A stretch of DNA of 64,000 nt. Source: Eledone cirrhosa (lineage: Eukaryota). Location of the stretch: assembly GCA_964016885.1 (NCBI GenBank), contig OZ024745.1:76570001-76634000 (forward strand), written 5' to 3'. Below the pieces are notes generated by a model that was not told the origin of the DNA, did not search any database, and worked only from the letters and a program-made list of their open reading frames with translations. The translations under genes and the position numbers were made by a program. This document shows, piece after piece, positions 23,358-61,744 of the stretch. Every line of letters begins with the position of its first letter. The stretch's first letter is position 1.

Positions 23358-23456
23358 CCACTCACACACACCCACACCCACTCATACACACGAATATATA
23401 AATATATAGTATGTGTAAGTGCGTATATATATATATATATATGTAAAAAAAATATA

Positions 23457-23504
<48 letters not shown>

Positions 23505-26500
23505 TTTTGCGAGGATAACGATGGTGGTCGACCCTATCGAAAGCTTTCGACTGATCTAAATTGATCAAGGACCCACCCGTGCCAGGTTTCCTAGTTACCC
23601 TCAACACGATGTATCGCATAAGGTGGAGGTTGTCGTGGATGGATCTGTCGGGAATGGCGCATGACTGCGCCTCTCCCACCAGACCACCAACGACAAGCGT
23701 CAACCTCTTTGCTAGCACCTTGACCAAAATCTTGAACTCTGTGTTTAGCAGAGTTATGGGCCTGAAATTATCTATGTTATCCCCCTTCTTCGGATCCTTT
23801 CTCAGCAGCGCCACCGTTCCTCGGCGGCTCACAGAGCAGGGAATTCTCCCGTTCTCTTGCCAGTTGCAGTAGACGTCCGCCAAGAGGCCTCCGAATAAGT
23901 CTGGCATTTGTACGTAAAGTTCATAGACCAGACCATCCAAACCAGGCGATTTACCCCTTCTGCAGCCAGTCATTGCTTCCCGTACTTCAGCTGCTGTTAT
24001 CGGCTTTTCGCAACACTCCGCCTCAGTGACCGAGAGCTGCGGCAGTCGGTCGAGGTAGACACTAACGTCCATCCCTCGATCCGGCCCGCCGCTGCCCCCC
24101 GAACAGCTGAGCGAAGTGTCGCTGAAAAGCTTCACACATTTGCCCGGGATCGAGTAGCATGCGCCCGTCGTGGTCCACCAAAGACCCGATCGTGGCTTTA
24201 TTGCCACGACGCGCCTCCGCCACTCGGGCCCATTGAACGACTTTTGTCCCCTCGTGTCTGAGAGCACGCACCCTAGCTCTGACAACTCAGCCTTCGTGCT
24301 TTGCATTGAAGAATTAGTCAAGGGCCAATTTCGCCGCAAGTACGTCGGTCGCGATGACTTTGCTAAGCGCCTCGTCTAATTTTCTAACTAGTTCTCCCTC
24401 TGCTCTATTTTTCTCTATTGCTAAAGCCTTACTAAACCTAATGACTTTATTCTAATCGCTCTTTTCAGAGCAAACCACCACTTGTTGTTGATGATGGCGC
24501 CCGTCAACGCCCGCTTAACTAGTTCGCTAATCCGGTCTCTGTAGGCCTTGCGCGCTGTTAATGACGCGTTTAGCTTCCAGTAGCCGGGTTCTTGTCTATG
24601 AAGCCTATCTAAGTCAACCACACAGATCACGAATTTGTGGTCCGTGTAGCTGACTATCTTGAATTGTGGACAGTCTATGCTGGACCTATCTATTTCCCTA
24701 CAAAATACTCTATCTAGATATGATCTGGATGATCCGATGCGGTTTGTCCAAGTCCACAGTGGCACATTCGGGAAATCTAATCGGTACCTGTCAGACAGTT
24801 GAAAACGCCTGAGCAGGTTGGTGACGCTCTTGCACCCTCATCCCCTATCCGCTAATCCCACACAGTCCCAGCGTGCATCTAAGATCCCGTTCCAGTCGCC
24901 CACTAACACTAAAGAGCGGGACGTTCCAAGAAAGGTCTCCAGACGCCGGAATAAATCAGGCCGCTCTGCTCCTGTCGGGGCATAGACGGCGCTTGCCCGT
25001 CTCCGCTGGTCACGTCCATCACCACCAACTTACCTTCTGGGTCCAGGAAGATGACCCGTATGGCGAGATCTAAACCTCTCCGAAAAAGCACAGCAACTCC
25101 TCCCCCGATCCAGGACGTCTGGGAGATGCGTATACATCGTAGCCGCCGAAGATCGGTGCGAAGGCCCGTGCTTCGGAGATTCTGGTCTCGCTGATGGCCA
25201 CCACATCTTTAGTGACCTGAGGTCGTTGAGCAGGTGGCCCTGCTTCCATGACGACCCTAAGCCACGCGCATTTATGCTGCCTATTCTGAGTGAGTTCATG
25301 TTGAAATGGAGTGGAAAAGATGGGAAAGACCACTTACCTTACTTCTCGTAGAGGAAGGATGGTTTCTCCATCCTTCTCACTGCTTGTGGTTGCCTCCGGA
25401 AGGATGTCCTTATAAATACTCCTGGAGAGTATTTGTCGGTAGTCTCCGATGTCCTTGGGGAATTTTTGTTTTAGTGTCGTGTACGTTTTCTGTGTGATGC
25501 GAGTGATTTGTATGTGTGGAGGTGGTGTGAATCTTTGGGGTGTTGTGTAGTCTTTTTCTGTGATGCTAGTGTTGTGTTGGGTTGTTCAAATTTAATGCTG
25601 TGTAGTGTGTATCGTTTTGGTTGTTTTGTTTTGTTTGCGTTTGTTGTGGGTTTGTTTCTGTTTCGCTTTTTGGTGACTTTTGTGGTGTTGGTGATGGTGG
25701 TGTTGGCGTTAATGATGGTGATGGTGTTGGTGTTTGTGGTGATGGGGTTGGTGATGCTGGTGTGGATGGTGGCATAGCTGTCCTAACTTTTTTGTTTGTT
25801 AGTTTATTTGTTTCCCCCTGTATTTTGTTTTTGGAGGAGGAAGGAAGAGGATTTTTCTTTTCGGGTTTTTTTTTCTTTTTTTCTTTTTTCCTGATACAGT
25901 TTCCCACTCCTCGTCGTCACAATCTGTCTCCAGTTGCGATAGGTCGGGGAGTAGAAAATCCTCCACAGGCGCTGGTTTGGGTTGTGGCGTGGTGGATGGT
26001 GCTAATTCTGGCGCGGTGGGTGGTGGTGGTGCTGATTTTGCTACTGTTGCTGGGGTTGTTGCTGCTACAGTTGTTTCTGTTTTTGCTGCTACAGTTGTTG
26101 CTGCCATTTCTGCTGCTGGTGGTGTTGATGGTTGAGTCACTGGAGTGGGTAAGAGAGGTGGCCTCAACTTTTTAGCCTGAGGGCAGAAAGCCTTTAGGTG
26201 GGTTCCTTCACCACAAACGACACACCTAGGCCTTCTACCTCAACGATTGCGGTGAGGTGGCTGCCGTCAGTGAGGTCTATCACGTCTGGAACTTCCTCAA
26301 TGCTTTTTTGGTCCGCTTGGATCAGGAGCTCCATCCCAGATCCGGACCAGTTCTCCTGCTTTTCTTTTCAATTATTTTCGTGTTGGCTATTAGCCAGAGA
26401 ATTTCGATGGCCGGTGGAATGTGGGTCACCCTGATCTTCACGAGTCTCTGTCCACAATAGCTTGGGACGAGTGTGAAGTCGTCGCTTCTTAATGGGACCA

Positions 26501-27491: not shown

Positions 27492-27492
<1 letters not shown>

Positions 27493-28035
27493 GCATCAAC
27501 CACCTCCCATACTTGAAAAAGATCACATCTCAATCTTGTGGAACTTTAGCATCCAAACAGACTGAAAAATAGATGCAAATAGACCTGATATAATATTGAA
27601 GTACTTTCAAAGGAGGGTATGCCTGCTAATTGATATGTCTGTTCCAATAGACAAGAATGTATCTATAAAAACATTTGAAAAATTGAGCAAGTATAAGGAC
27701 CTGGAGATAGAAATTGGAAAAATGTGGAAATTGAGAACTAAAACAATACCAGTGGTTGTAGGCGCTCTGGGAATGATACCTAAGGGGTCTAACGACTACT
27801 TATCGCAAATCCCAGGAAACCCGCGTATAGGAGAAATACAAAAGATAGTACTAATGGGAACTGCCCATATACTAAGGAAGATCCTGTCAATATAAGTACA
27901 TCACAAGTCTAAACACTAAGGATGCATGTGTGAATATGTGTGTTCTTTCTTGAACATGGCGGACCTTGTTGTCTCTTGAGGTCACTGGTTGTGACTTGGT
28001 GATAACTCGTATAAACATAAAGCAAGATAAATGCA
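27492..28035 (+). mobile_element. Dong/R4 family B, 5'-truncated copy between (TAA)n tracts
   Basis: Near-identical to 40100-40638; RLE C-terminus (RPD..ID...EK..KYKDL, IPVVVGALG). Confidence 0.92.
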
Positions 28036-28061
28036 AATAATAATAATAATAATAATAATAA

Positions 28062-28875
28062 GGGAAGAAAACGTACATGGTGGATATATCGGTATGGAAT
28101 CGCTCCCGTAAGTTTTTGATTTTTACTTATTTAAAACAACTGTGATAAAATAATTCTTATTACAAATGAAGTATAAGATTACAGTTTTCACGCTCAGCAA
28201 GCCACAACGCATCACATTACGGCATAGGGCCCCAATATTTAATATTTAATTTTGGATCAGAAATGTTATAGTCGAAAAAGAGAAAAATGGCAAAATGTCT
28301 AAGTGGACAGGCAGGCAAATAATTTCACCACCAACACCACCACCGCCACCATCACCACTACCACGCCAAAAACTCTAGTCAAGTTACCTCAACTTCTATT
28401 TCTACTTCAACTTCAACACCATCACTACAGTACTACGATCACATCACCACCACCACTGCCTCATTATCGCTACCGCCGCTATTCTCTCCCACTACCTCCT
28501 GCTAAGACAGGCATCGTAGTATTCCCACTAAAAGAGGAAGGCATCAAAAGATATAAATAGACTGATTTGATGACCCGGTCAAAAAATCAAAACAACAAAA
28601 TACAAAATCAAAACAGCACAGCAGCAACGAAAAACGTAAAGAAAAGAAAAAAGAAAAGAAAAACAGACAGACAGAGAAGGGAAAAAAAAACTAAGTCAGA
28701 CATTCAAACATTACATTACAATGAAACTTATGCTTATTCTTTTTTTTTTTGGGGGGGGGGTTACCTATTTGTTTGTTTGTTTATTTATGTTCGTCTACAG
28801 CGTGATAGTGCCACACTAAAATCACCGGGGGTGATGAAATCACCTGAAGTAATGAAATCACCGGTGGTTATGTAA
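28062..28875 (+). repeat. Duplicated spacer unit following (TAA)n; paralogues at 35707-36445 and 44661-45950
   Basis: GGGAAGA..CTCCCGTA(A/T)GTTTTTGATTTTTA...AAAAGATAT(A/G)AATAGA is present in all three copies. Confidence 0.8.
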
Positions 28876-28877
28876 CC

Positions 28878-31800
28878 ATACATTCACCAATCCTCGATAA
28901 GAGTGTTTAAATTTCGAACCTAAACAGTTCGAATAACGGTGAAGTGGAGACTGGAATGTCATGTGACAGACTCTCACCCAGCAGGTGCTCCCTGGCTCAG
29001 CAGCTGAGACCTGGCTGTCAACCAAATACTGCTGGTGTCGGAGGAAGAAGTAGAAGGAAAAGGACCAGAACCAACTGGACGAAAGAAATGTTATGCAATG
29101 TTACCCGAAGAGTAACCCAAGGAGAAAGGCTATAGGAAACGGATGCATAACATCTGGAACGAGATTGGTCTATTTAAATTAGATGAACAAAAATTGGCCG
29201 GGCAGGCTCGGCTAATAAGAACTAATGGGTGGATAAGCGAGCTGGAACTGGAGGAACTGAGCAGAGAGATTAGGTTGGAAATGGAGGCTGGAGTATGCCA
29301 GGCAAACGAGCCAGTGGGAAATGAAGGTGAAGAGGTTGAGAGAACGGAGGAACCATCCGAAGCAGACAATGATCTGAATGCTGAAATAAACAATACCTGG
29401 AACAGAGATACGGCCATTGAGGAAATGAATGCTGACGGGCTAGGACAAGATTTGGTTGATATCCTGAACTTAGTGGTAGATGAATTGAACAATGATAGTG
29501 GGAAACTTATGAACCTAAGATTTGTAGACAGGAAAAAGTTAAAAGAAACAACAGCTAAGGTAAACAAAGTCATCCCATACCTTAAGGCGAGGAGCCTTCA
29601 CCAGTGCAACAATATCCTCAAAGATCAGAACCTTGGTGGAAGAAACGACTGAATGGTCAAATCAGGGAAATGAGAAATGACATTGGAAAGCTTGAGTCAC
29701 TACTGAATGGGACACTACAAAACATAGACACTAAAAATAGACTGGAAATAAAGTACAAAACTAGGAGGAAAAAGCTAAATATTATCGTCGAGGAACTGAA
29801 GCAAAGCATTGTAGCAAAGAGTGCAAAAATTAGGCGATACGAGAGCAGAGTCAGTCAGTATAAACAGACCGCATGTTTGACAACAACCAGAAGATGTTGT
29901 TTGGACAGCTTGAAGGGAAAGAAAGGCAACGACTTGATCCCTGAGGCGGAACAAACTAAGACATTCTGGAGAGGAATATGGCAGCAGGATGTTAAACATA
30001 ACGACCAGGCAGTGTAGATTGAGACAGTACAAAAGGAGATTAGTGAACAGGCACACCAACAAACTGATTTGAGTATCACAGTTGAAACTGCTAAGGGGCA
30101 GGCCAAAAAACTAACCAACTGGAAATCACCAGGCCCAAATGGTGTGCAGGGGTATTGGATTAAAAATATAACATCCCTCCAACCGAAACTGACAATCATG
30201 TTCAATGACTGCTTGATGTCAGGTGAGGTACCAGAGTGGTTGGCAAAAGGTACCACAGTTCTGGTAATGAAAAACCGAATCAAGGGTAATGATGTTACGA
30301 ACTATAGACCTATCACATGTCTGTCCGTAATGTGGAAACTGTTGACGAGCATTGTGTCTGAGGAAATCTACCATCACCTCCACACAAACAACTTGTTACC
30401 GGACGAACAGAAAGGATGCCGAAAGAAGTCCCGTGGTACAAAGGACCAGTTACTTATTGATAAGATGGTAATGAGGAATTGCAAGAGGAGACACACTGGT
30501 CTTGCCATGGGATGGATAGATTACAAAAAGGCATTTGACATGGTGCCTCATTCTTGGATCACCAAAAGCCTAGAGATCTTCAACGTGGCAGATACCATCA
30601 AACAGTTGTTGGGCAAAAGTATGAAGTCCTGGAAAACAGAGTTAACATCAGCTGGAGAATCCTTGGGAGGCGTGAAGATCAAGAGAGGTATCTTCCAGGG
30701 AGATAGACTGTCCCCTCTTTTGTTTGTCCTTGCCCTCATGCCCCTGACCATTATACTGCGAAAAGTGAGAGAAGGATACAAGTTGGGAAAAGGAGAGCTT
30801 ACCATCAATCACCTTCTCTTCATGGACGATCTTAAGCTCTTCGGGAAGAGTGAGAAGGAGTTGGATGTGCTTGTTGACATTGTCCGTATTTTTAGCAATG
30901 ATATATGTATGCAATTTGGTATTAATAAGTGTGGAGTCCTTGTTATGAAGAGGGGTAAATTGAGCAGAAGCAACGGAATGCAGGTACCAACAGGTGAGAT
31001 GATACAGGAAATTGACACTGAAGAAGGATACAAGTATTTGGGTGTTCAGGAGGAAGATGACATCAAGAACAAAAAAATGAAGGAATTGATAAGATCTGAA
31101 TACATTCGGAGAGTAAGGAGCGTATTAAAGTCACATCTGAACAGTAGGAATGCCATAAGTGCAGTAAATTCCCGAGCTGTGTCTATTATTAGGTACAGTG
31201 CGAGAATTCTGAGATGGAATGTTGCTGAACAAAAAGAAATGGATAGGAAGACTAGGAAGCTATTGACTATCTACAACATGTTCCACAAGAGGAGTGATGT
31301 CGATAGACTCTACTTAAGGAGATCTGAAGGTGGAAGAGGTCTTATCAGCATAGAGGACTATGTTCAGATGGAGAAAAACAACCTACACAAATACGTGACT
31401 GTTGTAGGGAGCCAATGCTCAGAATTGTACTGAAGGAGAGGACAATAGACCAGGAAATAACAACAAGGACAAAGAGCAGTCTTCATGAAAAATCCCTTCA
31501 TAGTACCTTCTTTGAGAAAACTGAATTCAGGGATCCGCAGACATGGAACTGTTTGAAAAGAGGAGACCTTAAAAAGGCTATAGAAGGAATGCTAATGCCT
31601 GCGCAAGAGCGGCCCTCAAAACGAAGTGGTTGAAACACCATATTTACAAGGAGGAGGCTAGCCCACTGTGCAGGATCTGTGGAGAGAGAGATGAGACTGT
31701 GGCTCACATTGTGTCCGAGTGTAAACACCTAGCCCAGACTCACTATAAAGGCTGGAGACATGATGTGATGGGCAGGGTGATCCACTGGCACCTATGCAAA

Positions 31801-32317
31801 GTAAACAATTTGCCACATTCTGAGAAGGGGTATGAGTATAAGCCAGAGTCGGTGATAGAAAACGATCAGGTGAAGGTGCTGTGGGATTTTAGGATACAGA
31901 CGGACAAGAAACTGGAACACAATAGACCTGACCTGGTGGTTTTGGACAAGGAAAACAGATCGTGCCTGATTGTGGATGTGGCCTACCCATTCGACACGAG
32001 AGTGCAAGAGAAGGAGAGGGAGAAAATTAACCGATACCAGGACTTAAAGTGTGAGGTAAAAAGGATTTGGAACTGCCATTAAGTCAAAGTGGTCCCGGTT
32101 GTCATAGGCGCACTAGGTACTATCTCAAAATGTTTCCAGGGATGGTTAAAGAAAATTGGCCCCGCCACGCTTTTTGGAACGCTTCAAAAGGCATGCTTGC
32201 TGGGAACAGCAAGAACCCTCCGATACGTTCTGAATATCTGAGGCTGCAGGTAGTGGCTGATATTCATTTCAACAAACTTTCCAGTTAACTAACATCAATG
32301 ACTGAGACTCAAAGAAC
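28878..32317 (+). mobile_element. Dong/R4 family A copy 1, near full length, pseudogenised
   Basis: RT (WKSPGPNG, YRPITCL, DYKKAFD, QGD.LSP, LFMDD), CRIC..H..C finger and RLE, with many frameshifts and a (TAA)n tail. Confidence 0.93.
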
Positions 32318-32366
<49 letters not shown>

Positions 32367-32368
<2 letters not shown>

Positions 32369-35300
32369 GAGATTGGTTTATTTAAATTAGATGAACAAAA
32401 ATTGGCCGGGCAGGCTCGGGTAATAAGAACTAATGGGTGGATAAGCGAGCTGGAACTGGAGGAACTGAGCAGAGAGAATGGCTTGGAGATGGCGGGTGTA
32501 GTATGCCAGACAAGCGAGCCAGTGGGAAATGAAGGTGAGGAGGTCCTGAGAACGGAGGAACCACCCGAAGCAGACAATGATCTGAGTACTGAGATAAATA
32601 ATACCTGGAACAGAGATACGGCCACTGAGGAGATGAATGCTGACGGGCTAGGACAAGATTCGGTTGACATCCTAAATTTAGTGGTAGATGAATTGAACAA
32701 TGATAGTGGGAGACCTATGAACCTAAGATTTGTAGACAGGAAAAAGTTAAAAGAAACAACAGCTAAGGTAAACAAAGTCATCCCATACCTTGAGGCGAGG
32801 AGCCTTCACCAGTGCAACAATATCCTCAGAGCAACAGCAAATACGGTGAGGAAACTACTTGGTATAAAAGCGAGAGGAAACAACAGACAAGAAAGAGCAG
32901 AGCCGTGGTGGAAGAAGCGACTGAGTGGGCAAATCGGGGAAATGAGAAATGACATAGGAAAGCTTGAGTCACTACTGAATGGGACACTAAAAAACATAGG
33001 CACTAAAAATAGACTGGAAATAAAATACAAAACTAGGAGTAAAAAGCTAAATATTATCATAGAGGAATTGAAGCAACGCATTGTAGCAAAGAGTGCAAAA
33101 ATCAGGCGATACGAGAACAGAGTCAGTCAGTATAAACAGAACCGCATGTTCGACAACAACCAGAAGATGCTGTTTGGACAGCTTGAGGGCAAAGAAAGAG
33201 GCAACGACTTGATCCCTGGGGCGGAGCAAACTAAAACATTCTGGAGAGGAATATGGGAGCAGGATGTTAGACACAATGCCCAGGCAGGGTGGATTGAGAC
33301 AGTACAGAGGGAGATCGGTGAGCAGGCACAGCAACAGACTGATTTGAGTATCACAGTTGAAACTCTTAAGGGGCAAGCCAAAAAACTAACCAACTGGAAA
33401 TCACCAGGCCCAGATGGTGTGCAGGGGTATTGGATTAAACATCTAACATCCCTCCACCCGAAGCTGACGGCCATGTTCAATGACTGCTTGGTGTCGGGTG
33501 AGGTGCCAGAGTGGTTGACAAAAGGTACCACAGTTCTGATAATGAAAGACCGAATCAAGGGTAATGATGCTACCAACTATAGACCTATCACATGTCTGCC
33601 CGTAATGTGGAAACTGTTGACGAGCATTGTGTCTGAGGAAATCTACCATCACCTCCACACAAACAACTTGTTACCGGACGAACAGAAAGGATGCCGAAAG
33701 AAGTCACGTGGTACAAAGGACCAGTTGCTTATTGATAAGATGGTAATGGGGAATTGCAGGAGGAGACACACTGATCTTGCCATGGGATGGATAGACTACA
33801 GAAAGGCATTTGACATGGTGCCTCATTCCTGGATCACCAAAAGCCTGGAGATCTTCAGGGTGGCAGATAACATCAGACAGTTGCTAGGCAGGAGTATGGG
33901 GTCCTGGGAGACAGAGTTGACATCAACTGGAGTATCCTTGGGAAGCGTGAAGATCAAGAGAGGTATCTTCCAGAGAGATAGCCTGTCCCCTCTGTTGTTT
34001 GTCCTTGCCCTGATGCCCTTGACCATTATGCTGCGAAAAGTGAGAGCAGGATACAAGTTGGGAAGGGGAGAGCTTACCATCAATCACCTCCTCTTCATGG
34101 ACGATCTTAAGCTCTTCGGGAAAAGTGAGAAGGAGTTGGATGTGCTTGTTGACACTGTCCGTATTTTCAGCAGTGATATATGTATGCAGTTTGGTATTGG
34201 TAAATGTGGAGTCATTGTGATGAAGAGGGGTAGGTTGAGCAGAAGTAACGGGATCCAGATACCAACAGGTGAGATGATAAAGGAAATTGACTCTGAGGAA
34301 GGATACAAGTATTTGGGCGTTCTGGAGGCTGATGGCATAAAGAACAAAAAAATGAAGGAATTGTTAAGAACTGAATACATTCGGAGAGTAAGGAGCGTAT
34401 TGAAGTCACATCTGAACAGCAGAAATGCCATAAGCGCAGTAAATTCCCGAGCTGTGTCTATTATTAGGTACAGTGCGGGAATTCTGAGATGGAATGTTGC
34501 TGAACAAAAAGAAATGGATAGGAAGACTAGGAAGCTATTGACTATCTACAACATGTTCCACAAGAGGAGTGATGTCGATAGACTCTACCTAAGGAGATCT
34601 GAGGGTGGAAGAGGTCTTATCAGCATAGAGGACTGTGTTCAGATGGAGAAAAACAACCTATACAAATACGTGACCTATAGTAAGGAGCCAATGCTCAGAA
34701 CTGTACTGAAGGAGGGGACAGTAGGCCAGGGGATGTCCAGGGAGGAAATAACATCAAGGAGGAAGAGCAGCCTTAAGGGAAAACCCCTTCATAGTACCTT
34801 CTTTGAGAAAACTGAATTTAGAGATCCACAGACATGGAACTGGTTGAGAAGAGGAGACCTCAAAAAGGCTACAGAAGGAATGCTAATGGCTGCGCAGGAG
34901 CAGGCCCTCAAAATGAAGTGGTTGAAGCACCATATCTACAAGGAGGAGGCTAGCCCACTGTGCAGGATCTGTGGAGAGAGAGAGGAGACTGTGGCTCACA
35001 TTGTGTCCGAGTGTAAACACCTAGCCCAGACCCACTATAAGGGCTGGAGACACGATGTGATGGGCAGGGTGATCCACTGGCACCTGTGCAAAGTAAACAA
35101 TCTACCACATTCTGAGAAATGGTATAAGCATAGGCCAGAGGCGGTGATGGAGAACAATCAGGTGAAGGTGCTGTGGGATTTTAGGATACAGACGGACAAA
35201 AAAACTGGAACACAATAGACCTGACCTGGTGGTTGTGGACAAAGAAAAAAGATCGTGCCTGATTGTGGATGTGGCCTGCCCGTTCGACACGAGAGTGCAA

Positions 35301-35610
35301 GAGAAGGAGAGAGAGAAAATTAACCGATACCAGGACCTAAAGTGGGAGGTGAAAAGGATTTGGAACTGCCATGAAGTCAAAGTGATCCCGATTGTCATAG
35401 GCGCACTGGGGACTATCTCCAAAAGTTTCCAGGGATGGTTAAAGAAAATCGGCCCCTTCACGCTTTTTGGAACGCTTCAAAAGGCATGCTTGCTTGGAAC
35501 AGCAAGAACCCTCCGATACGTCCTGAATATCTGAGGCTGCAGGTAGTGGCTTGATATTCAATCCAACGGACTTTCCAGTTAACCAACATCAATGACTGAG
35601 ATTCAAGGAA
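32367..35610 (+). mobile_element. Dong/R4 family A copy 2, 5'-truncated, the most intact
   Basis: 938-aa open frame (32402-35218) with RT and the finger CRICGEREETVAHIVSEC. A +1 frameshift in an A run near 35200 separates the RLE end (to 35534). (TAA)n on both sides. Confidence 0.95.
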
Positions 35611-35617
35611 TAACAAC

Positions 35618-35671
<54 letters not shown>

Positions 35672-36689
35672 TATAATAATAATAATAAGAAGAAGAAGAA
35701 GAAGAAGGGAAGAAGACGCACGAGGTGGTAGAAGGTCATGAAATCGCTCCCGTATGTTTTTGATTTTTAACATATTTAAATCAATTGTGAAATAACAATT
35801 CTTAGTACAAATATGCATAAACCACCGAATGAAGTCCCATAAAATTTCGGATCCATATTATATTGTTATATCGCTCAAATATTCAATTTTGTATTATATA
35901 TTTTGTATTCAAAAAAAGAAAATGGTTATAAATGGAAGAAAACACCCTCTGTCTACACTATATAGAACAGCCAAATAACAGCAATTTCACCAACACCAGA
36001 AACTTGATACACCACCTATCCCATCACACTAAATATAACAGCCAGATAACGGCAATTTCACCACCACCACCATCAATCCCGGCATGATAATAATAATTAC
36101 TATTATTATTGTCTCAAATTTTAATAAAATGTTTAATTCCAATTTTACGGGAATATGTCAACACAATATATATTAAACATACGAACACAAACTCATAGAT
36201 ACTACATATCACAAAACCCAGTAACCACAACGCCACCGCCGCCACCACCCCATCCATCATCTTGCTACCACTATCCCATCGCCGCCGCCACCACTCCTTC
36301 ATTGCTACCACCACTATTCCCCTGTTAACTTGAGAGAGAAAGGGGAAGGTGGCGGTATCACTAGACAAGGGAGAGGCTAGCAAAAGATATAAATAGATTG
36401 ACTTAGTGACCTGGCCACCGGCCAAACGTCAACATCAACAACTATGGGACTGCTGGCTCCCCCCTTCCTCACCAACAATATAAAAAGCCCCGGCACCACC
36501 ACCGACATATCCAACAACAATAACAGGCAACTACAGCAAAAAGTATATTATATTATTGTAATGCACTGGATGATTGCTGGCCTTGTGCTTGGAGTGGAAA
36601 CAATTATTAATAATTTCATTCTTAAGCCACGCAATGCTCACATTAAGGAACCACTCATGATAATAACAATTTAAAAAAAAACAACAAAA

Positions 36690-39600
36690 AGAAAACCCCG
36701 TGACCAAGAAATACCGGGATGGCGGCCGGCAGGGAATAGCCGTGTCTCTAGGGGAGAACGACCCGTCTAGTCTTGGTTGACACTCGTTCTAGAAGTGGTA
36801 ACACGAAATGATTACCCCTTGGCGGATAAGGATAAAACGCGACAAAATAAAGTTAATGTCTAATGATAAAATCTCATACCGGATCGGCCGTCACCCGGGT
36901 AAAAAAGGGCCGCGTCCCTCAGAGAGGAACCAGACTGGGGTCGAAAAATCAGCTAATGGTTCAAACCTTCCCATCACTTCGGAGCTGGAGACCTCCCATA
37001 ACCGGAATACTCCTACTGTTGGCCCTCCATGCTCACCACCAAGAAATCCAAAGAAAAAGAGAGAAAAATGGTCAAGGGAAGATAATAAAGAAGTCCTTGA
37101 GGCTTTCTACACTGCCATGTACTACCCATCAAATACATCGAATACAGAACAGACATATATCAACTGGAAAAAGAAACATCCCGAAAACAGAGGCTATATT
37201 GACAGTAACAAACTAGCCAATATACGAAGAAATATTGTAAGAAAAAAGTTACTAACTGATATAGAAATTGATCAGATCAAGCTATTAGCACAAAGACAGC
37301 GAAGGGAAAATGAAACATGTGTCAGTGAAAACGAGGTAAACTGTAACACTTCGAACCCCAGGGTTGGGGCGGAATCACTGGCAACAGAACAAATTAAAGA
37401 AAGGATCGAAAAAGTGGAGGGAGTGCATGCTCAGGATGAAACTCCAAATGAAAATAATGAGATCGTAAATGATAAAGAAATGAATGAGAATGAACTTGCC
37501 AACTTGAAGGATGAAATTATGACCGAATGGATGAAAATGAAAGAATCTGACATGGGGCAACGAGACACCCTCCCTAAGATCCAGAACTCCAAACAGAACC
37601 AAAAGATAATACACAAGACTAACATAATTCTCAAAAACATTATCATCACAAACAAACTAAACATTACTGATTTAAATCATCTCTATTATGCATCGGCTAA
37701 AGTCACCACTCACTTATGTGGAGTGAAGATGAAAAAACAAAGGAATTCCCACAAGAAATCTACTTGGCAAGAGAACATCAATCGCCAAATAAACCTTCTC
37801 CGATCTGACATAGAAATTTTAACAAACTATAAAGTAGGTGAACATGTTAAACAAACTAAACTTAGAAAATTGAAAAAAAAGTACAGTATAAAATCAACAT
37901 GTGACATAGACATGCTGATAGAAATAATCAAGCAAAAAGTGTCGGCCAAAGCTGCACGTATAAGGCGCTTTGAAAAACGATCTAGATTCTATAAGGACAA
38001 TAATATGTTCAAAAACAACCAAAGAAACTTCTACAGAAAAATTGGTAAGTCAACAATAACTGCTAAATCAATACCACCCAAGGAGGAAGGGCAAGAATTC
38101 TGGGAAAAGATCTGGGCCGAAGAAAAAGTTCATAACATACATGCCCCATGGATAGACAGACAAATGAAAGATACAGCTCACCTTGAGGAACAAATATGGG
38201 AAAATATAACAGTTGAACAGTTGCGCTTGGCTCTAAGAAAAACCAGCAAATGGAAATCCCCAGGAAAAGACAAAATACAAAACTTTTGGATAAATGCCTT
38301 CACAGAGTCTCATGAGCTGTTAGCCCAACTTTACAATGAAATAGTTAAGGAGCCAGAAAAGATACCATCATGGCTAGTTAATGGCATTACATTCCTGCTT
38401 CCGAAGAATGATGAGACAAACAATCCCAAAAATTACAGACCGATAACTTGCTTGACCACAATGTATAAAATTTTAACATCAGTCCTAACTGAATACACAT
38501 ATGACCACCTGATAACAAATGACCTATTTCCCATTGAGCAGAAAGGGTGTAAACGAGGCTCATATGGCTGTAAGGATCAGCTTCTGGTTAACAAAATGAT
38601 ACTGGAAGATTGTCATAATAGACACAAAAATCTATCGATTGCTTGGATAGATTATAAAAAAGCATTCGATAGTTTGCCACACAGTTGGATTGAAAAATGT
38701 TTAGAGATTTTCAAAATATCCCCCGTTGTCAGGAGGTTTTTGTCATTCAGTATGAAGACATGGAAAACGACACTCCTTTTGAATAGTGAAACAAAATCAC
38801 TGGAAGCTGGAGAAGTTAATATTAATTGTGGAATTTTTCAGGGTGACTCTTTATCACCGCTTTTATTCTGCATCGCACTTATACCATTAAGTAAAATGCT
38901 CAATGAAACAAAACATGGATATAAAGTCTATGACAAAACCATTAATCACCTGTTCTACATGGATGACCTGAAACTATTTGCAAAAAATGATGAACAATTG
39001 CAAGGGCTATTATCCACTGTGGAGCAGTTCAGTGATGACATTAAAATGGAGTTTGGACTAGATAAATGCGCCAAAGCAACGTTCACGAGAGGAAAGCTGC
39101 TGAAGAGTTCAGACATTAATCTTGATCGGGGGAACGTGATAAGAGAACTTGATCAAGAAAAAACTTACAAATATCTAGGTGTTTGTGAAGGAGACGGAAT
39201 CAAGCACTCGACAATGAGGGAAAGGATAAGGAAGGAATGTTACCGCAGAGTAAGAGCAAACTTAAGAACGGAATTGAATGCAAGGAATAGTTTCGATGCC
39301 ATAAACACGCTTGCCATACCAGTAGTAACCTACAGTTACAATGTCATCAACTGGTCAAGCACAGAGATCCGTAGGCTCGATACAAAAATTCGAAAATTCT
39401 TAACCATGCACAGAATGTATCACCCTAAGGCAGATATAGATAGAATATATCTCCCTAGGAAAGAAGGAGGACGTGGGTTAATCCAGTTAGACATTGCGTT
39501 GAAAACTGCAACAATTGGATTATAATATCTAAGGGAATCACATGATTGGATGATCAAACTCGTTTTGAAACACGAAAGCATCAAAAGATCATATTCCATT

Positions 39601-40640
39601 ACAAAAGATGCACAAAGATACAGTAATGGACTACAAATTTCAGAAGTCCCATTTACTGCTGAAATGGAAAACACAGAAAAAGCAAAGCGGGTAAAAGTAA
39701 CTGCAAAGAAAGAACTGCTACTGGAACTGGCTAAGAAATGGCAAGAAAAGCATCTGTATGGAAAATACCCAGAAAGAGCTAACAATCCTGATGTTGACAA
39801 AACTTTAACCCATCAGTGGTTGGCATCCTCTGGACTGAAATCGGAGACTGAAGGACTGATTATATCAGCACAAGATCAGTGTCTGCCAACAAAAAATTAC
39901 CAAGCCAACATAATAAAAAATGGATGCAGCCCATTATGCCGTGTATGCAAAAAACAACCAGAGACCATTGACCATATAATTTCAATGTGCAGTCCTATAG
40001 CTCCAACCGAATACCTAAACAGGCATGACAGAGCTGCACAATACATACATTGGATAATGTGTAAGCATTTTGACCTGCCCCATCAAAAGAATTGGTGGGA
40101 GCATCAACCACCTCCCATACTTGAAAAAGATCACATCTTGTGGAACTTTAGCATCCAAACAGACCGAAAAATAGATGCAAATAGACCTGATATAATATTG
40201 AAGGACTTTAAAAAGAGGGTATGCCTGCTAATTGATATGTCTGTTCCAATAGACAAGAATGTATCTATAAAAACATTTGAAAAATTGAGCAAGTATAAGG
40301 ACCTGGAGATAGAAATTGGAAAAATGTGGAAATTGAGAACTAAAACAATACCAGTGGTTGTAGGCGCTCTGGGAATGATACCTAAGGGGTCTAATGATTA
40401 CTTATCGCAGATCCCAGGAAACCCGCGTATAGGAGAAATACAAAAGATAGTACTAATGGGAACTGCCCATATACTAAGGAAGATTCTGTCAATATAAGTA
40501 CATCACAAGTCTAAACACTAAAGATGCATGTGTGAGTGTGTATGTTCTTCCTTGAACATGGCGGACCTTGTTGTCTCTTGAGGTCACTGGTTGTGACTTG
40601 GTGATAACTCGTATGAACATAAAGCAAGATAAATGCAACT
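36690..40640 (+). mobile_element. Dong/R4 family B, near full length, one in-frame stop
   Basis: ORFs 36808-39525 and 39550-40497 are in the same frame, split by one TAA. RT FYMDD, finger CRVC..H..C, RLE RPD..ID, and a (TAA)n tail. Confidence 0.95.
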
Positions 40641-40660
40641 GTAATAATAATAATAATAAT

Positions 40661-43600
40661 GATTTCATTTATTTTCCACAAGGGCCGACATATAGGGGAC
40701 AATACAAAAGACTGGGACAGTGGGGTTTTACAGAAAAATCGAGTAAACAATATGAATAAACAAAGTAACAATAACAAAGTGTCAATAAAGTAACAAGAAA
40801 ATTACAAGAAGAAAAAATTCCCCAATAGGGGGGATGAGCACATAGGGTTCGCTCAGGTACCCCACCAATCATGAACGACCCGACGCTTCGAGAGAACCCT
40901 GGAAGGGCACCCCTCTCCTCTTCAAATTTACCTACCTACAGCCGCATGACCAGAGTAGGCCCACTCACACGGGCCATTCTCGCCACATTCACCCACCTTT
41001 CAGCAAATGTACCGGGGGGGGGGGGGGGGGGCAGCACTTTCTCTCCACCCTCACCTTCCTTTCCAAGTGAAACTTGAAAAAGTTGATGAGGGATTGGCCG
41101 AAGAGAAAAGTGTCTGTCTTCAGTCCTTTCAACCTCGTCCACCATACAACTTCTTTCGCTACTGCCACCAGACAGAGGAAAATTGCCTGCCCTTCCTGGC
41201 CAAAAGAAGGCGGCGGGTCGATCTTCACTATGGACTCGGCCGAAAGTCGGATCCGTTCTACTCGCGACAACAGCTGTTCAACATAACTCCACAAGTCAGT
41301 AATGCACGGACACTGGACGAGTGCGTGCAGAACGGTTTCGTCGCTCTGCGCGCATCTCGGGCAGGTCCATCTGACAACACTTCCGTGCCTGTAGAGTTTA
41401 TCTCGAACCGGCAGTGCCCCCCCGGTAGCACTGCGAAGCGAGGGAAATTATCCATCGTCCCCGGCTCGAAAGTCCTCCGGTACAGACTGGTTAGTTCGAC
41501 TTCGTTGACTCCCAGAGCCTCTCCGAGTGCGTCGTCGCACTTGCCCACCACTAATCCTCTATAGAACTCGAGAGTGGAAGTTCCACTGACCGCATTGCCC
41601 GCCTGGTAGAGGGCAGTGAGTGCCTGGCAACATTCCAGATGCCAGTCACCCAGTCTCGGTCTCTTCTTGACCCAGGACTGCAACTCAGTCAAAGAAACGA
41701 GCTGCGGAAAGGCCCGTCTGACAAACGGCGACCACACCTGTTCACCGTTTAGGCAGAATATCTGAGAGATGCCGCAGCCTCAGCGCGTGCCTGCGCATCA
41801 TTAGCCACGGCATGCCCACCCCTCCACGTAGAGGGTTCTGGCAGCAGATGGACCGCCTCACCAGCGGAACCTGACCCCTCCACAAGAATTTGAAGAGGAG
41901 CCGCTCCAAGATGGCGAGGCGCGAACGGGGGCAAGGGACGACCGTCGGACTGCAGTAGATGACGGACGCGATGTACGCGTTCGCCACCTCCGCCCGACCT
42001 TTCAGTGATAGTTTCATCCCAGCCCATTTCTGGGTGAGACTGATTACCCTGCCCGTCACCTCGTCCCAATTCTTATCCACCTGGAGGTCTGGCCCGAATC
42101 AAACCCCTAGCAACTTTACCGGTCCGTCCGTCCAGCGCCTAACGACGCTATTGGACGGCATGGACTTGCCTCTCCAGGTGCCGAGTTGCAAGCCTACTGA
42201 CTTTTCCGGGTTAAGTTTTGCTCCCGTCAACCTTTCATATTCCTCCAATAAGTTGCCGACCACCTCGATTTCTGAGGTGTCCGACACCATCACGGTGATG
42301 TCGTCCGCATAAGCCGACACAGCCTTTCCGCGTCCCGGTTCGAGCGGGATGCCCTGCAACAGCTCCAGCTTCCGCAGTAAAGGCTCGAGCGTCAATACGT
42401 ACTGAAACGGTTCCGAGAGGTGGCCATTAATTTTGACCATCGAGCAGGTGCCGCTGTGCATTGCAGCGATCCAGCTTCTGAAGACGGGGCCGAAGCCAGC
42501 CGCCTTGAGGACAGCCTCCAGGTACCGATGGTCGACCCTATCGAATGCTTTCGATTGATCTAAATTGATCAGAGCCCCACCGAAGCCAGGTTTACACCTT
42601 ACCCTCTCTATGATGTATCGCATTAGGTGGAGGTTGTCGTGTATGAACCTGGTTGGGATTGCGCAAGTTTGCGCCTCCCCAACCAAATCCCCGACGACAA
42701 GCGCCAACCTCTTTGCTAACACCCTGGTCAAAATCTTAAACTCTGTGTTGAGCAGAGTTATGGGCCTGAAATTGTCTAATGTGTCCCTCTTGTTCTCGTC
42801 TTTCCTTATCAGCGTCACTACGCCCCTGCTCACAGAACTGGGAATACTCCCGTTTTGCTGCCAGTTGCAGTAGAGGGCTTCGAGGAGATTGGAGAACAAG
42901 TCTAGCATATTTACGTAAAGCTCGTAGGGCAGACCATCCAAACCGGGTGACTTGCGCCTCATGCAGCCTACAAGGGCATCCTGAATCTCGGTTGAAGTAA
43001 TTGGCCTATCGCAGCGCCCAGCGTCAGCCGTCGAGAGTTGCGGCTAGCCATCGAGGTAGGGACTGAAGTCCGCCACCATCTCTGACCCGCCACTTCCCCC
43101 GAACAACCGAGCAAAATGTTGGCGAAAGGCCTCACACATCCTCTTGGAATCGCTCAGCTCGTGCCCGTCTCGGTCCGTCAAAGACCGAATCGTGGTTTTA
43201 TTACCACGCTGCGCCTCTGCCACGCGGGCCCATCGAACAGCTTTGGTTCCCTCGTTTCTCAGAGCACGCGCCTTAACTCTGACAATGCAACCTTCGTGTT
43301 TCGCATTGAAGAAATGGTCTAATGCCATTCTCGCCGCTAGCATATCAGTTGCAATGCCACTACCAATAGCCTTGTCTAACTTATCTACTAACTCCCCCTC
43401 CTTTCTATTTTTCTCTAATGCTACTTCTTTGCTAAACTCTATCGACATTACTCTAATCTCTCTTTTGAGAGCCCCCCACCATCTATTGTTGACGACTCCC
43501 CCTGTCAACTTTTTCTTAACTAAATTGTTGACGTGGTCCCTGTAAGCCTTACGTGCCGGAAATGACATGTTTAGCTTCCAGTAACCCGGTCCTAACCTAC

Positions 43601-44307
43601 GCGTCTTATCTAGGTCGACCATACAGATCACAAACTTGTGATCTGAATAGGCGACCGTTTCAAAACGTGGACAGCTTACACTAATTTCTGTCTATTTTCC
43701 TAATGAATATCCTGTCTATATACGATCTAGATGACCCTATGCGGTTAGCCCAGGTCCACACTTGCGCATTAGGGAAATCTAGTCGGTACCTGTCAGACAG
43801 TTGGAACTGGCTGATCAGGTTCTTGAGGCTTTTGCACCCCCCGCTCCTATCGGATACTCCCACACAGTCCCAGCGTGCGTCTAAGAGGCCGTTCCAGTCC
43901 CCCGCTAACAGTAAAGGGCGAGACGTACCCAGAAAGGCTTCCAGGCGTCTAAAGAAGTTCGGCTGTCCTGCCCCAGTAGGAGCATAGACGGCCACCAGTC
44001 TAAAGGCACCACCTTCATTATTGTTCACGTCCAGGACCACCAACTTCCCGTCCGGGTCCCGGAAGATCGACCTTACCTCGAGATCCAGGCCTTTCCTAAA
44101 CAGCACTGCCACCCCGCCTCCCATTCCCGGCCGGCTAACAAATGCAAAGATCTGATAGTCGTCGAAAATGGGGGCTAGTGCGCGCGTGTCGGAAATCCTG
44201 GTCTCGCTGACTGCAATTACATCCATTTCTATAGACCTGAAGTCGTTGAGCAGGTGACCCTGCTTCCAGGACGATCCCAGGCCTCGAACATTTAAACATC
44301 CTACTCT
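40661..44307 (-). mobile_element. Tx1/L1-clade LINE, ORF2 plus 3' UTR, second subfamily
   Basis: Begins RVGCLNVRGLG. APE motifs SET, VYAP, GDWN and YIDRIF; RT KAFDRVDH and AYADD (the QGCPLSP region is deleted near 42400); C-terminal CPRC..ETVLH..C. Ends with AATAAA then (ATT)n. Confidence 0.92.
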
Positions 44308-44598
44308 ACCAGTGGTTGTAGGCGCTCTAGGAATGATACCTAAGGGGTCTAATGATTACTTATCGCAAATCCCAGGAAACCCGCGTATAGGAGAAATACA
44401 AAAGATAGTACTAATGGGAACTGCCCATATACTAAGGAAGATTTTGTCAATATAAGTACATCACAAGTCTAAACACCTAAAGATGCACGTGTGAGTATGT
44501 ATGTTCTTTCTTGAACATGGCGGACCTTGTTGTCTCTTGAGGTCACTGGTTGTGACTTGGTGATAACTCGTATGAACATAAAGCAAGATAAATGCAAC

Positions 44599-44599
<1 letters not shown>
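44308..44599 (+). mobile_element. Dong/R4 family B 3' fragment
   Basis: About 8 differences from 40350-40640; followed by (TAA)n. Confidence 0.92.
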
Positions 44600-44661
<62 letters not shown>

Positions 44662-45257
44662 GGGAAGATACGCACATGGCGGATAGAGTGTTATGGACTC
44701 ACTCCCGTAAGTTTTTGATTTTTTACATATTTAAAACAATTGTGATAGAATAATTCTTATTACAAATAGAACATAAGATACCAGTCATCACTCTCAGGAA
44801 GTGACAACGCATCACATTATGGCATAGGGCTCCAATATTTAATATTTCATTTTGTATCAGAAATTTTATAGAAAAAAAAGAAAATGGTTACAAACAACAG
44901 CCAAATAAATTCACCACCAACATCACCACCGCCGCCGCCACCATCAATACTACCACAAAAAATTTAGCCAAATACAAACCAACGGCTGCAGCAACACCAT
45001 CACTATAGTACTACCATCGCATCACCACCGCCACCACTGCATCATCGCTACCACCACTATTCCCTTACTATCTTCTGTTAAGAGAGGGATGGTAGTAGTG
45101 CCACTACACATGACTAGAAGCGAGGAAGGTATCAAAAGATATGAATAGACTGGTTAGTGACCTGGTCAAACAGCTAACAACAACACCATGTATCTCTAAA
45201 CTCCCTCAAAATGTTTAGTTTAAATTATGTCAAATCTAAACTATAATATAATAATAA

Positions 45258-45585
45258 TAATTGTTTCTACTTTTGGCATAAGGCCAGCAATTACTCAGTA
45301 CATTACTGGTACTTTATTTTATAGACCCTGTAAGGATGAAAGGCAAAGTTAACCTTGGCGGGATTTGAACTCAGAATGGCAAGGGTCGTAACTCTATGAG
45401 TCAAAGCATGGCGTTCGACCCTCTACCGATACTGCCAATCCACTGCCCTTAATATAATAATAATAATTGTTTCTACTTTAGGCACAAGGCCAGCAAATTA
45501 CCCAGTGCATTACTGGTACTTTATTTTATCGACCCCGTAAGGATGAAAGGCAAAGTCAACCTCGGCGGGATTTGAACTCAGATCA
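45258..45585 (-). mobile_element. Two tandem Nin-domain SINEs in TAA-rich tracts
   Basis: Full copy at about 45258-45449 and truncated copy at about 45465-45583. Both are absent from the paralogous spacer at 28062. Confidence 0.88.
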
Positions 45586-45949
45586 TAAATATAATAATAA
45601 TAATGATAAGCAACAAGTCGAAAAAATTATAGAACAGAACACAGACAAAAACAAATGCAACAACAAAAACAAATTTCAAAAGTTTTGAACGCAACAACCC
45701 CTACTTCCCTCGTAGCTAAAATCGTAAACAGCAGCAGCAGCAACAACAGCACTAGTAACCGATATTACTGGCCTTGAAAAACGAAAAATGTAAAGGAAAA
45801 AAACAAACAAAAAAACTAAGTCAGACATTCAAACATTACAATGAAACTTATATCTATTTAAAACAGTTTTTATCTATTTATTTGTTTATTTATTTATGTT
45901 CGTCTACAGCGTGATGGTGCCACGCTAAAATCACTGGGGGTGATGAAAT

Positions 45950-48900
45950 CACACATTCACCAATCCTCGATATGAGTGTTTAAATGTCGAACCTAAACAG
46001 TTCGAATAACGGTGAAGAGGAGAGTGGAACGTCATTTGACAGACTCTCACCCAGCAAGTGCTCCCTGGCCCAGCAGCTGAGACCTGGCTGTCATCCAAAT
46101 ACTGCTGGTGTTGGAGGAAGAAGAAGAAGGAAAGGGACAAGAACCAACTGGACGAAAGAATAGAATAGAACTGTTATGCAATGTTACCTGAAGAGTAACC
46201 CCAAGGAAAAAGGCTATAGGAAACGGATGCATAACATCTGGAACGAGATTGGTCTATTTAAATTAGATGAACAAAAATTGGTTGGGCAGGCACGGGTGAT
46301 AAGAAATAATGGATGGATATTCGAGTTGGAACTGGAGGAACTGAGCAGAGAGATTAGGTTGGAAATGGAGAGTGGAGTATATCAGGCAAACGAGCCAGTA
46401 GGAAATGAAGGTTAAGAGGTTGAGAGAACGAAGGAAGCATCTGAAGCAGACAATGATCTGAATGCTGAAATAAATAACATCTGGAACAAAGATACGGCCA
46501 TTGAGGAAATGAATGCTGACGGGCTAGGACAAGATTTGGTTGATATCCTGAACTTAGTGGTAGATGAAATGAACAATGATAGTGGGAAACCTATGAACCT
46601 GAGATTTGTAGACAGGAAAAAGTTAAAAGAAACAACAGCTAAGGTAAACAAAATCATCCCATACCTTGAGGAGGGGAACCTTCACAAATGCAACAATATC
46701 CTCAAAGCAACAGCAAATGCGGCGAGGAAATTACTTTGCATAAAAACGAGAGGAAACAACAAACAAGAAAGATCAGAACCTTGGTGGAAGAAACGATGAA
46801 TAGTCAAATCAAGGAAATGAGAAATGACATTGGAAAGCTTGTGTCCCTACTGAATGGGACACTACAAAACACAGACACTAAAAATAGACTGGAAATAAAG
46901 TACAAAACTAGGAGGAAAAAGCTAAATATTATCATAGAGGAACTGAAGCAACAACGCATTGTAGCAAAAAGTGCAAAGATTAGGCGATATGAGAGCAGAG
47001 TCATTCAGTATAGACAGACCGCATGTTTGACAACAACCAGAAGATGCTGTTTGGACAGCTTGAAGGGAAAGAAAGAGGCAACGACTTGATCTCTGAGGCG
47101 GAACAGACTAAGACCTTCTGGAGATGAATATGGGAGCAGGATGTTGAACATAATGATCAGGCAGTGTGGATTGAGACAGTACAAAAGGTGATTAGTGAAC
47201 AAGCACACCAACAAACTGATTTGAGTATCACAGTTGAAACTCTTAAAGGGCAAGCCAAAAAACTAACCAATTGGAAATCACCAGGCCCAGATGGTGTGCA
47301 GGGGTATTGGATTAAAAATATAACACCCCTCCACTCGAAACTGACAACCATATTCAATGACTGCTTGATGTCGGGTGAGGTACCAGAGTGGTTCACAAAA
47401 GGTACCACAGTTCTGGTAATGAAAGACCGAATCAAGGGTAATGATGTTACCAACTATAGACCTATCACATGTCTGTCCGTAATGTGGAAACTGTTAACAA
47501 GCATTGTGTCTGAAGAAATCTACCATCACCTCCACACAAACAACTTCTTACCGGACGAACAGAAAGCATGCCGAAAGAAGTCCCGTGGTAAAAAGACTAG
47601 CTACTTATTGATAAGATGGTAATGAGGAATTGCAAGAGGAGACACACTGGTCTTGCCATGGGATGGATAGACTACGAAAGGCATTTTACATGGTACCTCA
47701 TTCTTTGATAACCAAAAGCCTAGAGATCTTCAAGGTGGCGGATAACATCAGACAGTTGTTGAGCAAAAGTATGAAGTCCTGGGAAACAGAGTTAACATCG
47801 GGTGGAGAATCATTGAGAGGCGTGAAGATCAAGAGAGGTATCTTCCAGGTAGGTAGTTTGTCCCCTCTGTTGTTTGTCCTTGGCCTGATACCCCTGATAC
47901 CCATTATACTGCGAAAAGTGAGAGCAGGATACAAGTTGGGAAAAGGAGAGGTTACCATCAACCACCTCCTCTTCATGGACGATCTTAAACTCTCTGGGAA
48001 GAGTGAGAAGGAGTTGGATGTACTTGTTGACACTGTCCGTATTTTCAGCAATGATATATGTATGGAATTTGGTATTAATAAGTGTGGAGTCCTAGTGATG
48101 AAGAGAGGTAAATTGAGCAGAAGCAACGGAATCCAGGTACCAACAGGTAAGATGATAAAGGAAATTGACACTGAAGAAGGATACGAACATTTAGGTGTTC
48201 TGGAGGAAGATGACATCAAGAACAAAAAAAAATGAAGGAATTGATAAGATCTGAGTACTTTAGGAGAGTAAGGAGCGTATTAAAATCACATCTAAACAGT
48301 AGGAATGCCATAAGTGCAGTGAATTCCCGAGCTGTGTCTATTATTTAGTACAGTGCGGGAATTCTGAAATGGAATGTTGCTGAACAAAAATAAATGGATA
48401 GGAAGACTAGGAAGATATTGACTATCTACATGTTCCACAAGAGGAGTGATGTCGATAGACTCTACTTAAAGAGATCTGAAGGTGGAAGAGGTCTTATCAG
48501 CATAGAGGACTGTGTTCAGATGGAGAAAAACAACCTGCACAAATACGTGACTGACAGTAGGGAGCCAATGCTCAGAATTGTACTGAAGGAGAGTACAATA
48601 GACCAGGGGATGTCCAAGGCGGAAATAACAACAAAGAGGAAGAGCAACCTTCATGAAATATCCCTTCATAGTACCTTCTTTGAGAAAACTGAATTCAGAG
48701 ATCCACAGACATGGAACTGGTTGAAAAGAGGAGACCTTAAAAAGGCTACAGAAGGAATGCTAATGGATGTGCAAGAGCAGGCCCTCAAAACGAAGTGGTT
48801 GAAACACCATATTTACAATGAGGAGGCTAGCCCACTGTGCAGGATCTGTGGAGAGAGAGATGAGACTGTGGCTCACATTGTATCCGAGTGTAAACACCTA

Positions 48901-49487
48901 GCCCAGACTCACTATAAAGGCTGGAGACATGATGTGATGGGCAGGGTGATCCACTGGCACCTATGCAAAGTAAACAATTTACCACATTCTGAGAAGTGGT
49001 ATGAGTATAAGCCAGAGTCGGTGATAGAAAACGATCAGGTGAAGGTGCTGTGGGATTTTAGGATACAGACGGACAAGAAACTGGAACACAATAGACCTGA
49101 CCTGGTGGTTTTGGACTAGGAAAACAGATCGTGCCTGATTGTGGATGTGGCCTGCCCATTCGACACGAGAGTGCAAGAGAAGGAGAGGGAGAAAATTAAC
49201 CGATACCAGGACTTAAAGTGGGAGGTAAAAAGGATTTGGAACTGCCATGAAATCAAAGTGGTCCCGATTGTCATAGGCGCACTAGGTACTATCTCAAAAA
49301 GTTTCCAGGGATGGTTAAAGAAAACTGGCCCTACCACGCTTTTTGGAACGCTTCAAAAGGCATGCTTGCTGGGAACAACAAGAACCCTCCGATACGTCCT
49401 GAATATCTGAGGCTGCAGGTAGTGGCTTGATATTCATTTCAACAAACTTTCCAGTTAACTAACATCAATGACTGAGACTCAAAGAAC
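45950..49487 (+). mobile_element. Dong/R4 family A copy 3, near full length, pseudogenised
   Basis: Likely start ATG at 45984 (MSNLNSSNNG). Colinear with copy 1, with stops and frameshifts. Tail is (TAA)n(GAT)n(GAA)n. Confidence 0.93.
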
Positions 49488-49552
<65 letters not shown>

Positions 49553-50385: not shown

Positions 50386-50527
50386 AGCAATAATAATAAC
50401 AATACTAACCTGTCTCTTGCATGATAATAACAAATTATCATTAAAACCAGATTGTATATTCCATGATTATAATAAAGAATCAATGACCCTAGTTCAATAG
50501 ATTGAAGTTTTCCCTGGGGAAGTAACG

Positions 50528-53069: not shown

Positions 53070-53100
53070 GTAAGCTTGCTACCGGTTAGTATTATATTTA

Positions 53101-53479
53101 GGTGGATTGGCAGTATCAGTAGAGAGTCGGACGCCATGCTTTCCAGCATAGTTACGCCCCTTTACGGTCTGAGTTCAAATCCCGCCGAGGTTAACTTTGC
53201 CTTTCATCCTTACGGGGTCGATAAAATAAAGTACCAGTAATGTACTGCGTAATTGCTGGCCTTGTGCCAAAAGTAGAAACAATTATTTTTAGGTGGATTG
53301 GCAGTATCAGTAGAGAGTCGGACGCCATGCTTTCCAGCATAGTTACGTCCCTTTACGGTCTGAGTTCAAATCCCGCCGAGGTTAACTTTGCCTTTCATCC
53401 TTACCGGGTCGATAAAATAAAGTACCAGTAACGTACTGGGTAATTGCTGGCCTTGTGCTAAAAGTAGAAACAATTATTT
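53101..53479 (+). mobile_element. Near-identical tandem dimer of the Nin-domain SINE
   Basis: Units start at 53101 and 53292 (191-bp period). Confidence 0.9.
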
Positions 53480-61738: not shown

Positions 61739-61744
61739 AGTATT

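Follow-up and report, generated by a model that had tools for sequence, protein, structure and literature searches.

Three copies of a Dong-like LINE (A1, A2 and A3, here family A) lie in the same orientation within the 64,000-nt stretch of Eledone cirrhosa DNA analysed here (assembly GCA_964016885.1, contig OZ024745.1, positions 76,570,001 to 76,634,000; hereafter the window), and the middle copy, A2, departs from its two relatives with an excess of sense-strand A-to-G changes (Table 1). The initial annotation took these changes for the fossil of one ADAR-edited element RNA that had been reverse-transcribed and fixed. Does A2 thus record a single editing event, or were its changes acquired in another way and, if so, by what process? 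At sites in positions 33696-34345 where A1 and A3 agree and A2 differs, three-way alignment reproduced exactly the counts on which that proposal was built (23 A>G, 8 G>A, 3 T>C, 2 C>T and 7 transversions), together with its five AA>GG doublets and its amino-acid changes of the K>R, K>G, N>G and R>G class. Over the whole alignment, A2 alone differs at 152 of 2,761 three-way columns, with 62 A>G, 27 T>C, 21 G>A and 9 C>T.

Table 1. Coordinates of the features in the window, with the basis of each assignment.
Feature	Position	Strand	Basis
Copy A1 of the older (O) subfamily; a short internal deletion lies near 29620	28684..32365	+	alignment
(AAT)n tract forming the tail of A1, into which A2 inserted	32318..32367	+	sequence
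Copy A2, 5'-truncated, young (Y) subfamily, R4/Dong-like LINE	32367..35610	+	identity to genome copies
Reverse transcriptase (RT) domain PF00078	33563..34321	+	E=1.8e-20, aa 420-672 of ORF 32306-35218
The 23 A>G sites of the initial annotation: subfamily-diagnostic, gained stepwise	33696..34345	+	three-way alignment, young copies, ladder
CCHC zinc-knuckle motif (presumed)	34961..35014	+	by eye in translation
One-base insertion private to A2, frameshift ahead of the endonuclease	about 35198	+	copy alignment
Restriction-like endonuclease motif region (PD...D; presumed), out of frame in A2	35217..35283	+	in frame in natural young copy L019
(AAT)n tail or target tract 3' of A2	35609..35688	+	sequence
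Family B: distant RT-bearing LINE serving as replicate and outgroup	36802..40660	+	PF00078; 277/751 aligned residues identical to A2
Copy A3 of the older subfamily, one of the more heavily decayed	45809..49535	+	alignment

The solved structures nearest to the A2 RT, among the PDB matches, were R2 proteins first and L1 ORF2 next. Two downstream motifs, taken to be a CCHC zinc knuckle and a PD...D restriction-like endonuclease, were seen by eye in both A2 and L019, and neither gave a profile match. AAT tracts border A2 on both flanks and also follow A1 and A3 on the 3' side, in these window copies. With its RT, its knuckle and nuclease motifs by eye and its (TAA)n insertion, family A appears to fit the R4/Dong clade, as judged from sequence. 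The reading frame of A2 had been described as left open, a description that does not hold in full: the copy is 5'-truncated, and its private one-base insertion shifts the frame before the endonuclease. Among young copies spanning the A2 length, the frame is open in 27 of 50 when insertions are ignored.

A2 stands in a train of Dong-like copies at (AAT)n tracts (A1, A2, B and A3; window positions 27492-49535), in which 3' fragments of family B also occur at 27492-28059 and 44307-44622. Two decayed RT-bearing elements on the minus strand (23362-25287 and 42099-44355) are 73% identical to each other and gave no DNA match to family A. A dispersed SINE-like short repeat of about 190-340 bp is present in both orientations at 45244-45589, 49725-50397, 53091-53482 (as a tandem pair), 54482-54674, 59088-59298 and 61573-61739.

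Placing A2 among its relatives in the genome (3.0 Gb, 1,796 contigs searched) changes the picture. The best 40 scored genome matches to the stretch were all about 100% identical to it, and A2 shares 98.7-99.6% identity with most of 29 other top genome matches. A 20-base motif whose two central doublets both read GG has 2,191 genome occurrences, its AA form has 1,875, and the half-way form has 9. Divergence from the majority of the own group is about 1-4% in the older group (A1, A3) and mostly below 1% in the young group (A2). We scored the 23 sites in 144 young copies, of which 134-142 cover each site; 7 duplicate loci were discarded in the course of the analysis, as were, from one set of 147 young candidates, 9 that were mosaic or intermediate. 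At 22 of these sites G is carried by at least 90% of the covering young copies, and at the 23rd by 101 of 134. The differences that are truly private to A2 amount to three unique substitutions (two G>A, one C>T) and the insertion, with zero A>G. The changes are thus not A2's own, and with states common to about 2,200 copies and gained stepwise, A2 is not the fossil of one edited RNA.

The stepwise gain is seen in trees, which order the copies as a ladder that leads from old ones over intermediates to young ones (copies with fewer than 2,200 aligned bases were excluded from the tree, and 6 to 8 mosaic or probe-selected copies were left out of the 228-tip tree and of the private-change counts). 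Along 16 chosen copies, G is found at 0, 1, 3, 4, 4, 7, 15, 18 ... 23 of 23 majority A>G sites, among which are 21 of the 23 sites originally counted. Even the doublets came apart, four of the five having been built one base at a time: (i) at 34065/66 and 34199/200 AG is already present in most old copies (50/60 and 48/56), (ii) at 34233/34 AG is carried by 20 of 28 intermediate copies, and (iii) at 33891/92 GA is seen in L094 and L099. FGINKC therefore went from N to S to G. Other substitution types were gained in the same ladder steps as A>G. Four sequencing runs of unrecorded kind carry both old and young states, which thus exist outside this assembly.

Given this ladder, it is scarcely credible that a single hyper-edited RNA left its fossil in A2 or in one recent ancestor. 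The local count, the direction and the doublets are real, and at the fifth doublet, 33899/33900, no single-G intermediate occurs in the sampled copies; since that doublet is unsplit and copies between intermediate and young are few (the 9 half-way matches), one small multi-site step is possible. Spread of the sites over many stages, the split doublets and the other substitution types alongside all speak against it, and no single event made the A>G cluster; the original finding is explained by ordinary subfamily structure, and the element itself is an ordinary Dong-like LINE.

Some copies (L003, L087, L097, L102 and L224) are mosaics with a sharp switch between young and old states, in both orientations, which would reflect either template switching or gene conversion between subfamilies.

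The polarity of the changes was upheld. A is ancestral: older copies have A, homologous proteins side with the old residue, and family B has K in MKxW. Over the 33 codons altered by A>G only, 80 homologous proteins favour the old residue in 23 and the new one in 6, with 4 ties. A search at 80-90% identity, meant to yield an outgroup subfamily, retrieved old family A copies only, so that the A>G direction is drawn from copy age, the ladder and the proteins. The claim of clustering was borne out in part. The 650-bp stretch is no significant cluster, the best 650-bp window holding 26 A>G against 23.3 expected (p=0.17), whereas doublets and short gaps are mildly in excess, with 5 adjacent doublets against 1.9 expected (p=0.038) and 26 gaps of at most 10 bp against 16.8 (p=0.005), both under an expectation that ignores uneven constraint.

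What, then, drove a source lineage to gain G step by step? Decay of dead copies is dominated by G>A and C>T at 1.17% each per copy, with A>G at 0.47% and T>C at 0.43%, i.e., it is symmetric between strands, as the initial annotation had assumed of DNA-level decay. The replicating lineage behaves otherwise. At 340 four-fold sites it gained A>G at 12/119, T>C at 6/84, G>A at 0/78 and C>T at 1/59, which relative to per-copy decay corresponds to about 21x, 13x, 0x and 1.2x. Pooled over four lineage stages, 267 events comprise 119 A>G, 42 T>C, 35 G>A and 16 C>T, and the A>G share by successive stage is 20/41, 76/174, 19/44 and 5/9. Since the lineage spectrum reverses that of decay, the A>G and T>C changes are likely to come from the copying cycle or from a fixation bias, not from ordinary germline mutation. 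The lineage is also skewed towards the sense strand: synonymous A>G stands at 57/281 against T>C at 28/259 (p=0.003), and on branches of the 228-tip tree with at least five tips at 89/280 against 52/260 (p=0.009), these tree counts being inflated by recombination. Young-copy singletons are strand-symmetric (1.09 versus 1.03 per kb). Two further estimators were set aside: regression intercepts as a per-round mutation load, as biased, and counts of singletons across all loci, which remove recurrent G>A. In the old copies L282-L341, private A>G is about 1.3-1.4x T>C (2.67 versus 2.10 per kb, p=0.013); its neighbour context is flat, and G>A and C>T are symmetric.

On balance, we think it probable that the A>G states of A2 were fixed stepwise along a chain of active source elements and arose mainly as errors of the copying cycle, predicted to be RT misincorporation, that passed a filter of selection on the protein. 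The states are shared, were gained in stepwise order and run from A to G, and A>G and T>C are both accelerated, with a two-fold sense-strand skew in family A; conserved residues are avoided. With every round of transcription and target-primed reverse transcription, a copy would gain a fraction of a substitution: dC placed opposite template A would yield a sense A>G, and a wobble dG opposite template U would yield a sense T>C. Dead copies would then show the usual symmetric decay by G>A and C>T, and the lineage that continues to jump would sum the errors of copying. Purifying selection would confine amino-acid changes to variable positions; changed residues do lie at variable columns (mean conservation 0.39 versus 0.62), and such selection would account for the quiet stretch at 34440-34588, noticed in the initial annotation and found here to be without old-to-young changes of any type.

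In vitro, the RTs of L1 and R2 are reported to make 1.2-2.2e-4 errors per base; most are transitions, and thymine is the base most often substituted, cytosine the one most often misincorporated (PMC11331410). We read these, from the portion of that report drawn on here, as the base placed in the cDNA; both this strand reading and the transfer to the present RT would have to hold for the comparison to apply. Young copies carry 133 private A>G in 144 copies, i.e., about one each with decay included; the 76 fixed A>G would therefore imply a hundred or more successive rounds, as an order of magnitude. This need for many rounds counts against RT error as the source, as do the synonymous A>G at twice the T>C in family A, the ranking of third-position neighbours in the order of ADAR, and the lean of young private A>G to a 5' A or T. 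At window position 33599, a young-lineage T>C changes Ser to Pro and restores the residue of 77 of 80 homologues, possibly a repair under selection.

These very points bring ADAR back in another guise. Low-level ADAR might supply a large share, about half, of the lineage A>G, with T>C left to RT error; we regard this only as a tentative alternative. Element RNA could, on this less favoured account, pair with antisense or inverted copies, gain one or a few inosines and be reverse-transcribed, and lightly edited copies that still encode a working protein could become the next sources. ADAR would then perhaps act as a steady mutator, its products including amino-acid changes in the RT, and would push the element against the AT-ward drift of the genome. 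Across animals ADAR is described as favouring a 5' U or A, disfavouring G and targeting young repeats (PMC9989829), and squid editing outside the nervous system as being directed at repeats (PMC9068888), each in the part of the source used here. The order of third-position synonymous A>G by 5' neighbour (T 14/46, A 30/109, C 10/58, G 3/68) matches, i.e., U~A>C>G, by column counts and by tree; G>A and T>C have no such 5' context at synonymous sites, and the two-fold A>G skew recurs in four successive stages. The 5' preference thus held at synonymous third positions, as had been claimed for A2, and vanished at first positions, where A>G followed A in 6/117, T in 4/72, C in 1/93 and G in 9/134 (20 events, p=0.82). 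It is at first positions that the 5' neighbour is free; at positions 2 and 3 it is tied to the amino-acid change (K>R/N>S tolerance) or to the codon family, so that the ranking there is confounded and the nine of 20 first-position events after G, with no depletion of 5' G, weigh against ADAR. Moreover, T>C is also strongly accelerated, and editing of the sense strand cannot produce it.

Recent tips give a faint signal of the same kind. Private A>G of young copies lean to a 5' A or T at p=0.045 for strict singletons and p=0.0004 when up to three carriers are allowed, and old-tip private A>G have a flat 5' context. A strong lean in young tips was considered and dropped: removal of shared alleles shrank it to p=0.045, and to p=0.12 against old copies. 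Linked A>G pairs within 30 nt in young copies number 1 against 2.1 expected. Changed sites are not more often paired in the local fold, a measure blind to pairing between copies, with a weak effect within +/-10 nt at synonymous sites (p=0.03). No hyper-edited segment was present in 398 alignments (845 kb, with 142 of the loci chosen by their position only), and in scans of 321 and then 398 alignments no stretch of 150 nt held more than 4 clean A>G, not above G>A. Three genome-wide probes for two adjacent changes returned 1, 0 and 1 matches, both otherwise ordinary copies; such probes are blind to copies edited elsewhere, and a hyper-edited rate below about 1% is compatible with these results. 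The lack of linked pairs, of hyper-edited family members in these scans and of extra local pairing speaks against a large contribution by ADAR. Two copies, L280 (window-equivalent 34460 and 34463) and L281 (33579 and 33581), each show two nearby TA>TG changes in otherwise ordinary decay, which could be two-site edits or chance.

Family B offers a replicate, with about 58 candidate copies of which 30 were sampled. Its lineage gained 92 events, including 26 A>G, 22 T>C, 12 C>T and 9 G>A, and its synonymous changes stand at 16/379 for A>G against 19/315 for T>C, i.e., these 30 copies show no strand skew, and they show no 5' context. The lack of skew again runs counter to ADAR. One family B copy, L277, has 110 private changes, of which 25 are A>G, 7 T>C and 24 G>A; a dense cluster is absent (5 per 150 nt).

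A GC-ward fixation bias on the source lineage, through biased conversion among copies or through selection against A-rich sequence or for certain codons, seems to us unlikely, less so than a single fossil and more so than ADAR. It would account for A>G and T>C both being raised and G>A and C>T not, and for weak-to-strong transversions of 18 versus 14 on the lineage against 68 versus 156 in dead copies; because mosaic copies exist, and show exchange between subfamilies, a GC-favouring bias is possible. Conversion is strand-symmetric, yet third-position NAA>NAG stands at 30/113 and NAT>NAC at 4/72, a gap that likewise counts against codons ending in G or C being preferred in general. Nor would such a bias readily raise the lineage rate to many times the neutral one. 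Errors of the copying cycle, filtered by selection, thus remain the account that we prefer.

The interest of the locus shifts accordingly from A2 to the family. The dense ladder of source elements has a spectrum opposite to that of dead copies, with A>G and T>C accumulating 13-21 times faster, and could serve as an in vivo read-out of the mutations that the retrotransposition cycle adds. It would also offer an answer to the open question, raised for vertebrate elements, of how LINE base composition is kept against AT-ward bias (PMC9099904, in the part relevant here). Should ADAR truly supply a part of the changes, RNA editing would, beyond its role as a defence, introduce heritable mutations into active elements. 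We found no report in the open-licence literature of a LINE source lineage whose spectrum is reversed and skewed towards the sense strand.

Among known systems, the R4/Dong clade is described with an RT followed by a zinc knuckle and a restriction-like endonuclease and with (TAA)n insertion (PMC7998251); by that description family A is alike in domain order and in (TAA)n insertion. An N-terminal Myb-like domain is a further mark of the clade; the A2 copy is 5'-truncated. APOBEC-edited LTR retrotransposons of vertebrates (PMC4866542) likewise rest on the notion that a host deaminase marks the DNA of retroelements in a strand-biased way. There, as far as that account was consulted, the mark consists of G>A in single-copy clusters of 10 or more with about 10-fold strand bias, whereas family A has no single-copy clusters, a two-fold bias and lineage-wide changes. 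For edited sites in coleoid genes (PMC7703385), genomic replacement of A by G is likewise discussed in connection with editing; in the part of that study drawn on here, the argument is about how selection acts on host genes and does not involve edited RNA being reverse-transcribed. Transitions dominate the L1 and R2 RT spectra (PMC11331410) as they do here, those spectra being from other enzymes in vitro, at about 1e-4 per base. In studies of vertebrate LINEs (PMC7140322, PMC9099904), C>T and G>A prevail among the singletons of dead copies, a spectrum like that of our dead copies, and, according to the portions relevant here, shared mutations were left out on purpose. It is in these shared changes, along the lineage of active sources, that family A displays the reverse of the vertebrate singleton spectrum, namely A>G and T>C.
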